This document shows, piece by piece, positions 1 through 3,000 of a stretch of 8,563 bases of DNA. The position numbers are program-made. Position 1 is the stretch's first letter. Each line of letters starts with the position of its first letter. Location: IMG/VR virus record IMGVR_UViG_2529292904_000011, positions 1 through 8,563 of that record. One strand, written 5' to 3'. The stretch is from a virus (lineage: Duplodnaviria; Heunggongvirae; Uroviricota; Caudoviricetes).

Positions 1-3000
1 TCGACACAAAAAAGACCTGCTTATCTCGGTGGGTGATTTGGTTGATCGCGGTACAGAGAACGTCGAATGCCTGGAATTAATCACATTCCCCTGGTTCAGA
101 GCTGTACGTGGAAACCATGAGCAAATGATGATTGATGGCTTGTCAGAGCGTGGAAACGTCAATCACTGGCTGCTTAATGGCGGCGGCTGGTTCTTTAATC
201 TCGATTACGACCAAGAAATTCTGGTTAAAGCACTTGCTTATAAAGCAGATGAACTTCCATTAATCATCGAACTGGTGAGCAAAGATAAAAAATATGTCAT
301 CTGTCACGCCGATTATCCTTGTGACGAATACGAGTTTGGAAAGCCAGTTGATAATCAGCAGGTAATCTGGAATCGCGAACGAATCAGCAACTCACAAGAC
401 GGGATCGTGAAAGAAATCAAAGGCGCGGACACGTTCATCCTTGGTCATACGCCAGCAGTGAAACCACTCAAATTTGCCAACCAGATGTATATCGATACTG
501 GCGCAGTGTTCTGCGGAAACCTCACATTGATTCAGGTACAGGGAGAAGTCGCATGGGTATAAGAGAACTAAACCTCACCAAAGAACAGCACGATTGGCTG
601 AATGGCTGGCTTGAACTGTGGGGCGCATGGGTTTATTCAGGTCGTCTGGAAAAGCGCATGAGCAGCGTAATAGCGAAGTTCATGGAGAGCGTAGAGCCGG
701 GAAGAATTATGACAAGGCCAATGTGCAATGATGATGATGGAATGTTGATTTCTCAGGTCGTCGATTCCGTCATGTGCATTGACAAGAAAGCCTTTGGCAT
801 CCTCCTCAGCTACTACGCTCATGGTTCATCTAAGCGAGCAATTGCATCCTACTATCACGCGACTGCAAAGCCACGCAAGATGTGTGGACGTGGTGGCGAG
901 GGATGGAGAAAACCTTCACTGGCAACCTGTAGAAATGAAATTGACGACATCCTGAAAGCATCATTATTTGTTTTGTACCAACCAATGCAAAATGCTTTCA
1001 AAATGCGTAAACGTGTTGAGAAAGTTAAACACATTGCTGTTAAAAGTCTTGACATGCAATTATCCATTTGGCCATAATTAGAAGGTAAGCTGCCGTTAGT
1101 GACTCTTAAGTTGCAACGGTGGCTTTTTTTATTTGGGTCAGTCGTATAAAGGTCATTACGGAAGGCTGTTAACCTTCTTATCGTGGTTCGAGTCCACGCT
1201 GTCCCGCCAAACATGCTGGTTTAGCTCCAATGGTAGAGCAACTGACTTGTAATCATCAGGTCGCCAGTTCGATTCCGGTAGTCGGCACCATATGCGGGTA
1301 TCATATAATGGCTATTACCTCAGCCTTCCAGGCTGATGATGCGGGTTCGATTCCCGCTACCCGCTCCAGATTTATTATCAGTCTCGCTTCGGCGGGCTTT
1401 TTTCATATCTGCGCCACGTTCGGTGCATATCAACCATAAAGCTTTTCAGGGACGGGGTTACGGGATAGTCAGTGTGACTTTATCCGTAGGCTGGTTACCC
1501 ACTGGCGCAGGCTCTGCAGTTACCGCTGGGGCAGTACCTGTGGAAAGTGCACGCTTTGGGCTGACTGTCATCATGTTGTTTCTGGTGGTGGCAGTGGATT
1601 TCACCGGGCGTCTGATGTCGGTACTGGCTGATGGTGTGATGAAGCGTGGGATTGTGACATTACGGTGGTCGGTGATGAAAAGAAACAGTCTGAATAATGC
1701 TTGATTTTTTTACTTACTGTTTATTAGAAATACTGCCGTATAGCGAATCCCATGTGTAAGAGGTTATCAGCAGGCTGGAATACTGGGGGGCGCGGATTCA
1801 GGTGCTGATACTGAATTCACCGGGGCGGCCACCGGACCATGCATATATCAAAGTTGTGATTCTACTTATCATTTTCCTTGTGAGTTTTGGCTGCGCATGG
1901 CGCGGCCTTTTTTTACGATCTGCCACTGGCAGATGCTCATCCTGTGATTTTCTTCTGTTTCGGCCTTTTTTACTCTATTCCTGTGCATGGGAGAAATTCG
2001 ATGTCGATTAATCGTTACGATATTGTGCGGGCAGCATCGCCATCAGATCTGGCGGACAAGCTCACGCAAAAACTGAAAGAAGGCTGGCAGCCGTTTGGTA
2101 GCCCTGTGGCCATAACTCCTTATACCCTGATGCAGGCGATTGCAGCAGAAGGTGATGTGGTGGTCAGTGGCACAACTGAGCCGGAGTGGTACTACGTGGT
2201 CGTGCTGGCCGGACAGTCCAATGCCATGTCTTATGGTGAGGGTATTCCTCTTCCTGATTCATATGATGCGCCTGATCCGCGTATTAAGCAGTTGGCACGT
2301 CGCAGTACGGTGACGCCTGGCGGAGAGGCATGTGTATTTAACGATGTGATCCCGGCAGATCATTGTCTGCATGATGTGCAGGATATGAGTGTGTTCAGTC
2401 ACCCTGAAGCAGATTTAAGCAAAGGTCAGTATGGGTGTGTCGGACAGGGCTTACATATCGCCAAACGTCTGCTGCCGTATATCCCAAAAAATGCCGGGAT
2501 TCTGCTGGTTCCCTGCTCCCGTGGCGGTTCAGCATTTACAGCAGGGGCGGATGGTACATTCAGTGAAGCTACGGGGGCCAGCCAGAACTCTGCGCGCTGG
2601 GGAGTGGGTAAGCCGTTATATCAGGATCTGATACTGCGTACAAAAGCGGCACTGGCGAAGAATCCTGAAAATGTTCTGCTGGCGGTATGCTGGATGCAGG
2701 GTGAATTCGATATGACAAACGCTGGCTATGCTCAGCAGCCTGCAGCATTCCAGTCGATGGTGCAGCAGTTCCGTAGCGACCTTGCCGGTATGGCGGCGCA
2801 GTGTCATGGTGGAAGCGCTCAAAAAGTGCCGTGGATTTGTGGTGACACCACATACATCTGGAAACAGAAGTACGCCACACAATATGAGGCGGTGTATGGC
2901 GCTTATAAAGGAAAGGAAGCACAGAATATTTTCTTTGTTCCTTTTATGACAGGTGGCAGTGGTGAAAACACGCCCACGAATGAGCCGACGGAAGATCCGG

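Follow-up and report, generated by a model that had tools for sequence, protein, structure and literature searches.

What controls the late genes of a lambdoid prophage in which the Q antiterminator gene runs straight into a promoter, and that promoter is followed at once by a hairpin and a run of thymines? The question is posed by positions 1049-1130 of IMG/VR virus record IMGVR_UViG_2529292904_000011, of which positions 1 to 8,563 were analysed (the whole stretch of 8,563 nucleotides (nt), hereafter the window). The prophage DNA is 100% identical to Escherichia coli O55:H7 strains RM12579 and TB182A and follows a lambdoid gene order: N, cI, cro, cII, O, P, nin genes, Q, transfer RNAs (tRNAs), nanS-p-like esterase, lysis and terminase. 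Positions 1049-1130 very probably constitute a phage 21-type cassette for late-gene control whose Q-binding specificity is that of phages L and Sf6. The arrangement of late promoter (PR'), Q-binding element (QBE), sigma-dependent pause element (SDPE) and terminator (tR') is already known from phages 21, L and Sf6, and the window carries a further copy of it.

The late promoter, pause element and terminator

The original prediction placed a TTGACA/CATAAT promoter across the Q stop codon. We find both hexamers (Table 1), and the Q TAA (1075-1077) lies inside the -10 hexamer. PR' matches the sigma-70 consensus at 11 of 12 positions with an 18-bp spacer, is the top-scoring site of the window in a promoter scan and, as in other Q21-type cassettes, sits at the 3' end of Q. 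It is convincing because of this position and its homology to the promoters of other phages, not because of the hexamer match alone.

Transcription is predicted to start at G1085, which lies 7 nt past the -10 hexamer as in phage 21. The sequence TAAGCT at 1086-1091 then occupies +2 to +7, the place of the SDPE in Q21-type cassettes. The pause in phage 21 is commonly quoted at +18. Shortly past the pause site comes an intrinsic terminator, again as in Q21-type cassettes. Its hairpin has 17 bp (11 bp, a bulged A, 6 bp and the loop CUUA) and shares part of its 5' arm with the pause element. The RNA 1085-1130 folds as ..(((((((((((.((((((....)))))))))))))))))..... with a free energy (dG) of -20.2 kcal/mol (z -4.7), and 0 of 200 shuffles folded as well. 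This hairpin was missed by a simple terminator scan of the window because the bulge and upper stem exceed the loop limit of the scan. A hairpin and T7 tract within about 45 nt of the promoter had been proposed, and the T-run indeed ends 46 nt from G1085 and 52 nt from the end of the -10 hexamer. With 3' ends predicted to fall in the T7 tract, the released RNA would be ~44-46 nt long.

The elements themselves, their register and their identity to the elements of phage 21 are direct observations. The start and terminator positions of phage 21 were taken from the annotation of OL657228, which cites PMID 1704887. Each part of the original prediction, namely PR', a short terminated leader and Q-dependent read-through, has its one-to-one counterpart in the experimentally studied phage 21 cassette, and the comparison supports this reading.

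Table 1. Coordinates of the cassette and its surroundings, with the evidence for each feature. Positions are those of the window unless a related locus is named.
Feature	Position	Strand	Evidence or remark
Q antiterminator gene, 174 amino acids (aa), Q21 family, phage L/Sf6 subtype	553-1077	+	PDB and Pfam matches
PR' -35 hexamer TTGACA	1049-1054	+	promoter scan; aligns with annotated phage 21 pR' -35
Upstream QBE subsite (QBEu), predicted, AATTATCC	1058-1065	+	identical to phage L subsite proposed in PMC8022706
Downstream QBE subsite (QBEd), predicted, ATTTGGCC	1066-1073	+	tandem repeat of QBEu
PR' -10 hexamer CATAAT	1073-1078	+	promoter scan; aligns with annotated phage 21 -10 (AACACT)
Inferred transcription start G, +1	1085	+	aligns with annotated phage 21 late start A2031 of L002
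SDPE TAAGCTG, -10-like, +2 to +8	1086-1092	+	identical to annotated phage 21 SDPE
tR' terminator hairpin	1087-1125	+	fold; identical to phage 21 terminator (annotation citing PMID 1704887)
T7 tract of tR'	1124-1130	+	sequence; T-run starts at +40, as in phage 21
tRNA-Asn (GTT)	1135-1209	+	ARAGORN; Rfam 55 bits; identical to phage 21 and Sf6 tRNA-Asn
tRNA-Thr-like gene (anticodon TGT)	1215-1287	+	Rfam tRNA model, 47 bits
tRNA-Gly (TCC)	1294-1368	+	ARAGORN; Rfam 54 bits
Second intrinsic terminator, closes tRNA cluster	1380-1403	+	stem 1383-1396, then CTTTTTTCAT; dG -7.8 kcal/mol, z -2.8
DUF3927 open reading frame (ORF)	1475-1705		preceded by intrinsic terminator
Third intrinsic terminator, upstream of nanS-p-like gene	1889-1914	+	8 pairs (7 GC), then T7; dG -19 kcal/mol, z -3.6
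nanS-p-like protein, 613 aa, DUF1737 + SASA esterase + DUF6645	2001-3842		preceded by intrinsic terminator
Fourth intrinsic terminator, just upstream of holin gene	4205-4241	+	11 pairs, then TTTTTGTTTT; dG ~-22 kcal/mol, z -3.2
Holin gene	4287-4493		phage 21-type holin and endolysin identified by Pfam
Long hairpin after tR', related loci	L004 2079-2165; L005 581-667; L011 2088-2165; L012 2080-2160; L016 2081-2160; L083 1554-1650

Q and the predicted Q-binding element

Immediately upstream of the promoter lies a Q21-family gene. Its product matches PDB 6JNX/6P18 (Q21) over residues 1-162 (E 1e-90) and Pfam PF06530 Phage_antitermQ (2e-25), and is 97% identical to Sf6 gp59. Between the promoter hexamers, the spacer holds two tandem 8-bp direct repeats (1058-1073), which we take as the predicted QBE. 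In phage 21, substitution of the base pairs at -21 and -13 impairs antitermination by 21Q (PMC6606751). Relative to G1085 the window has C1064 at -21 and C1072 at -13, as in phage 21, and the 12 nt from QBEd to the pause element are also the phage 21 distance.

The repeats point to the phage L subtype. Phage L-type Q is ~80% identical to 21Q but has a different QBE, for which the tandem repeats AATTATCC/ATTTAGCC have been proposed (PMC8022706). The residues of 21Q that read QBE bases are H95, R113, A124, R127 and R128 (PMC6606751); in an alignment with the window Q, R113, A124 and R127 are unchanged, whilst H95 is replaced by R and R128 by N. Since R95 and N128 accompany an altered repeat sequence, Q and its site have changed together.

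The end of Q and its binding site also share sequence. In Sf6 and its relatives Q has 172 aa and ends ...MQL(A/S)I, at a TAG inside the downstream subsite. In the window, G1070 turns this usual TAG into TGG and lengthens Q from 172 to 174 aa; as a consequence the window Q gains Trp-Pro and stops inside the -10 hexamer.

A separate observation concerns the minus strand of the Q gene, where TTGCGTGGCTTTGC at 865-878 fits the CII-binding consensus TTGYN6TTGY. At the homologous position within its Q gene, phage 21 has an annotated paQ antisense promoter with a CII site.

Conservation across the Q21 family

The survey of Q21-type loci covers 23 loci with distinct sequences, drawn from a genome scan, five phage records and 80 viral contigs. 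Scanning the viral contigs with the Q alignment gave only relatives of 96-99% identity, which inform on variant frequency and not on diversity. The loci come from Escherichia, Shigella, Salmonella, Atlantibacter, Shimwellia, Pantoea, Erwinia, Cedecea, Rahnella, Buttiauxella, Izhakiella, Phaseolibacter, Hafnia, Edwardsiella and Providencia.

All 23 share a common plan of TTGAC(A/T), 2-3 nt, two 8-bp direct repeats, a -10 hexamer, 7 nt and TA[A/T/C/G]nnT. The -35 itself reads TTGAC(A/T) in 22/23, the exception being HK639 (TTGCAA), and one locus (L021) is a deletion variant without one QBE subsite and without the start of the -10 hexamer. Among 15 aligned members, L021 included, the 7-nt gap between the -10 hexamer and the pause element has no insertion or deletion, and the T, A and T of the TAnnnT pause element are invariant (15/15). 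The plan, with the pause element written as TAnnnT, provides an annotation rule for such loci, and the importance of the element in the window lies mainly in its correct annotation.

An intrinsic terminator follows within ~110 nt downstream in every locus (23/23). The T-run of the first terminator starts at +39 to +42 in 15/23 loci and at +54 to +109 in 7/23; the +32 printed for L021 is an artefact of a misplaced start and pause, and the same hairpin and T-run follow its TAAGCT. The leader of the window had been described as unusually short. That description is apt next to lambda, whose leader is ~194 nt against ~45 nt here, and next to Shiga toxin (Stx) phages of the 933W type, but it fails within the Q21 family. 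In the commonest design within the family the terminator overlaps the pause element, and the short leader is therefore not peculiar to the window. An identical leader lies upstream of the tRNAs and stx2c of the Stx2c phage 2851, which has a 21-type Q.

The tR' hairpin is also supported by covariation. For this test a hand-written structure was laid on a nearly gap-free alignment of 9 sequences, and a covariance model was used alongside it. Pairing holds in 93.5% of cells, and 4 pairs have compensatory changes, for example from G-C to U-A and from A-U to U-A. The observed covariation was reached by 0/500 shuffles, and controls with a slid register collapse. Moreover, the covariance model built from the 9 sequences recovers the Hafnia and Edwardsiella leaders. 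RNAalifold on a MAFFT alignment of 15 leaders returned no consensus structure; here indels shift the register of the upper stem. The family-wide conservation and the covariation are thus observed directly. Conservation of the 5' arm in sequence is due to the pause element within it, and the 3' arm follows suit.

Two further hairpins were seen in the surveyed loci. In L014, L015, L017, L019, L020, L106, L107 and L044, about a third of Q21-family loci, a hairpin overlaps the pause element without a U-tract and the canonical terminator comes at +54 to +109. We considered this first hairpin of the long-leader lineages as an independent element and rejected it: 7 of 9 folded leaders gave z values of -0.6 to -2.4, mostly shuffle-like, with Hafnia (z -5.1) as the clear exception. 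Relatives that lack tRNAs have a long hairpin of ~85 nt directly after tR' (Table 1), bounded by GCACAACAG ... CGTTGTGGTGAA, with a variable apex and clear compensatory changes between Escherichia, Pantoea and Erwinia. In one viral contig its apex contains a tRNA T-arm-like GGTTCGAATCC. This hairpin had no Rfam family match, and it fills the slot held by the tRNA genes in the window.

Proposed mechanism

The pause, the loading of Q, the exit-channel ring and Q-dependent read-through of tR' come from the phage 21 literature. In the structure of 21Q two protomers occupy the direct-repeat QBE, and one of them forms a hairpin-excluding ring in the RNA exit channel (PMC6606751); Yin et al. 2019 arrived at the same 'nozzle' model for Q21. 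On 21PR'-21tR' templates in vitro, Shi et al. 2019 measured 21Q-dependent read-through of ~2-fold, and ~10-fold with GreB (PMC6606751). The polymerase that lambdoid Q proteins engage has paused with 16-25 nt of RNA (PMC4914094).

Carried over to the window, these data suggest that host sigma-70 RNA polymerase would start at PR', most likely at G1085, that sigma region 2 would re-bind the -10-like TAAGCT (+2 to +7), and that the polymerase would pause after ~14-20 nt of RNA. Without Q, it would move on, the 17-bp hairpin would form and an RNA of ~44-46 nt would be released in the U7 tract. With Q, two protomers would bind the AATTATCC/ATTTGGCC repeats in the promoter spacer, and one would put its ring into the RNA exit channel of the paused polymerase, letting only single-stranded RNA pass. 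The modified polymerase would then ignore tR' and the terminators at ~1390, ~1900 and ~4220, and would transcribe the three tRNAs, the DUF3927 ORF, the nanS-p-like esterase and the lysis genes. Three more + strand terminators ahead of the lysis genes had been proposed alongside the promoter, and all three are present by scan and fold (Table 1). In this way the element would explain both the silence of the tRNAs, nanS-p-like esterase and lysis genes in the lysogen and their activation by Q. Moreover, because tRNA-Asn begins 5 nt after the T-run of tR', general tRNA biology suggests that RNase P cutting before tRNA-Asn should also free a 50-nt leader from read-through transcripts.

Evidence against the cassette and alternative explanations

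Several findings weigh against a working phage 21-type switch. An 11/12 promoter match turns up in 14% of shuffled windows (0.15 expected per shuffled window), so that the hexamer match of PR' is not significant alone, and the 18-bp spacer is suboptimal. QBEd has G1070 where close relatives have A (A[TA]TTAGCC, with ATTTAGCC in relatives) in 78/78 readable cases out of 80 viral contigs fetched, and the G variant is common to only 2 IMG/VR contigs. The terminase large subunit and portal genes are pseudogenes in the RefSeq annotation; given the rare G in QBEd and these defects elsewhere in the prophage, the late switch could be weakened. Lastly, for the O55:H7 prophage the start site, the short RNA and the dependence on Q, including Q function on the variant QBE, are all predictions from the phage 21 comparison.

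The variant subsite and the pseudogenes also lend themselves to an explanation in which the cassette has decayed to a remnant. With Q loading weakened or abolished by the A-to-G change in QBEd, PR' transcripts would always end at tR' and the late genes would be uninducible. The displaced Q stop codon fits such decay, as Sf6 Q ends at the TAG inside the downstream subsite with 172 aa and the window Q has 174, and so does the rarity of ATTTGGCC. Yet the Q ORF is otherwise intact at 97% identity to Sf6 Q, and the critical C is present at both -21 and -13. G may be tolerated, since a Providencia relative has it at the corresponding place in each subsite (AATGGCCA/AATGGACA), and the variant has been retained in six O55:H7 genomes. 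We consider decay unlikely.

Could the ~45-nt leader instead be a functional small RNA (sRNA), trans-acting or protein-binding and made constitutively in lysogens? The model for this is StxS of the Stx1/Stx2a phages (Q933-type), which arises by early termination from PR' in lysogens (Sy et al. 2020, PMC7547250). Its primary transcript has 258 nt, from which processing by RNase E yields an Hfq-type sRNA of 74 nt (PMC7547250). Early PR' termination is what is predicted for the window too, whereas the window RNA would be a single hairpin of ~45 nt from a phage with a Q21-family Q. PR' promoters are active in lysogens, lambda 6S arises in the same way as StxS, and similar short terminated RNAs are made by lambda, 21, phi80, 82 and P22 (PMC7547250). 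The hairpin is identical in phage 21, Sf6 and the window despite differing flanks, and with its U-tail it resembles an Hfq-binding 3' module.

Nevertheless, the original prediction's hint of a StxS-like regulatory RNA drew no support from the leader itself. A single hairpin takes up nearly all of the RNA, whose 2 unpaired 5'-terminal nt and 4-nt loop offer no obvious single-stranded seed, and the RNA belongs to no Rfam family: a search at a permissive threshold returned chance-level matches only, the best reaching 19 bits against a gathering score of 58. The pause element accounts for conservation of the 5' arm, with which the 3' arm merely covaries. Moreover, a different and longer leader layout is found in 7/23 loci, and the first hairpin of the long-leader lineages tested is mostly indistinct from shuffles. 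A search of the literature on mapped starts or sRNAs in BTP1/D23580 found nothing specific to the PR' leader. A StxS-like role is, in our view, quite improbable. We place similarly little confidence in the broader idea that the leader hairpin persists as a stable RNA and has an independent function, such as a protein decoy or a loop-mediated regulator, and in the related one that the A-to-G change has re-tuned or disabled Q loading. Hundreds of phage 21/L/Sf6-type prophages in Escherichia, Shigella and Salmonella would be making this ~45-nt leader constitutively, and RNase P would free it from read-through transcripts as well.

The closeness of tRNA-Asn to the T-run raises a further reading, namely that the chief task of PR' is constitutive transcription of the three tRNA genes, with the hairpin a leaky attenuator or a signal for processing that does not depend on Q. 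According to PMC8022706 it is not known if such tRNAs are processed out of late mRNA or transcribed from a promoter of their own. Against this, many relatives have the same promoter, QBE and leader with no downstream tRNA, and Stx2c phage 2851 keeps the leader beside a truncated tRNA-Asn. At -20 kcal/mol and followed by U7, the hairpin makes a strong terminator, and termination at 21tR' has been seen in vitro (PMC6606751); the spacer repeats and pause element would have no role in a plain tRNA promoter. This makes a dedicated tRNA promoter very unlikely.

It is scarcely credible that the hairpin and T7 tract only end the early-right operon after Q beside a coincidental promoter match, as the ~50 nt between them and the Q stop codon and the frequency of 11/12 matches in shuffles might suggest, because 23 loci of differing sequence keep the -35, -10, repeats and pause element at the same positions and the phage 21 start is annotated at the homologous base.

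Downstream tRNAs and neighbouring genes

The second of the three tRNA genes behind the phage 21-type cassette is absent from the ARAGORN output and the RefSeq annotation, whilst the matching region of phage JLK-2012 has an annotated tRNA-Thr. Its 3' half differs from the tRNA-Thr of phage 21 and Sf6, and its acceptor stem would have several G-U pairs; judged by sequence, it may be a recombinant or impaired tRNA. Further downstream, the DUF3927 ORF and the nanS-p-like gene occupy the place where Stx phages carry stx. Lastly, positions 8212-8334 (+), inside the RefSeq terminase large-subunit pseudogene, give a full-length Rfam match to isrC (150 bits, E 2e-37), an Hfq-binding sRNA first described in Salmonella.

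Comparison with known systems

Lambda PR'/6S/tR' follows the same logic, having a constitutive late promoter with a QBE between -35 and -10 and a -10-like pause element in the initially transcribed region, and likewise a short terminated RNA and Q-dependent read-through (PMC7547250, PMC4914094). Lambda Q is unrelated in sequence to the Q family of the window, and it needs an extra -35-like element that is lacking in other lambdoid late promoters (PMC6606751).

Phage 21 is much nearer. After Q, its record (OL657228) lists the pR' -35, QBE, -10, late start, SDPE, terminator (PMID 1704887), tRNA-Asn and tRNA-Thr. The two Q proteins belong to the same family with 83% identity, and phage 21 and the window are alike in the -35 (TTGACA), the tandem 8-bp QBE, the QBE-SDPE and -10-SDPE distances and the C at -21 and -13. 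Identity is complete from TAAGCT (1086) to tRNA-Asn, with the hairpin, T7 run and tRNA-Asn included. They differ in the QBE, AATTATCC/ATTTGGCC in the window against ATTGAGCA/AATGAGCA in phage 21, and correspondingly in Q at H95R and R128N. The -10 is CATAAT against AACACT, the first transcribed base G against A, and the spacer 18 bp against 17 bp, the extra base falling between the -35 and the QBE. Moreover, the window Q has 12 C-terminal residues beyond 21Q, so that its ORF extends across the -35 and the QBE and ends within the -10.

On the Q side the closest relatives are Sf6, L, BTP1, HK75 and SPN9CC, whose Q proteins are 96-97% identical to that of the window and which have the same promoter, leader and tRNA-Asn. 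In BTP1, a prophage of S. Typhimurium D23580, the cassette is 97% identical. The Sf6 record (AF547987) labels near-identical sequence as 'P R' putative late promoter', 'qut site' and a tR' terminator 'similar to phage 21'. The QBE of this group is of the same type, AATTA[T/G]CC/ATTTAGCC, whereas the window has G in the downstream subsite; the usual Q stop of Sf6/L-type phages is TAG, which in the window is TGG with the stop shifted into the -10 hexamer. Further downstream the group runs directly into the lysis genes, whereas the window has a JLK-2012-like tRNA-Thr, tRNA-Gly, DUF3927 ORF and nanS-p module.

The borders of similarity differ accordingly. The match to JLK-2012, a phage with a 21-type Q, sets in precisely at 1086 and reaches 1447, whereas similarity to Sf6, BTP1 and L spans Q through tRNA-Asn and ends inside tRNA-Thr (~1240). 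Because these borders differ, the Q/QBE/promoter module and the leader/late module are separate mosaic units. Taken together, the comparison indicates that the phage L-type Q/QBE module and the leader, pause and terminator module shared with phage 21 have been exchanged separately, with their junction at the transcription start.

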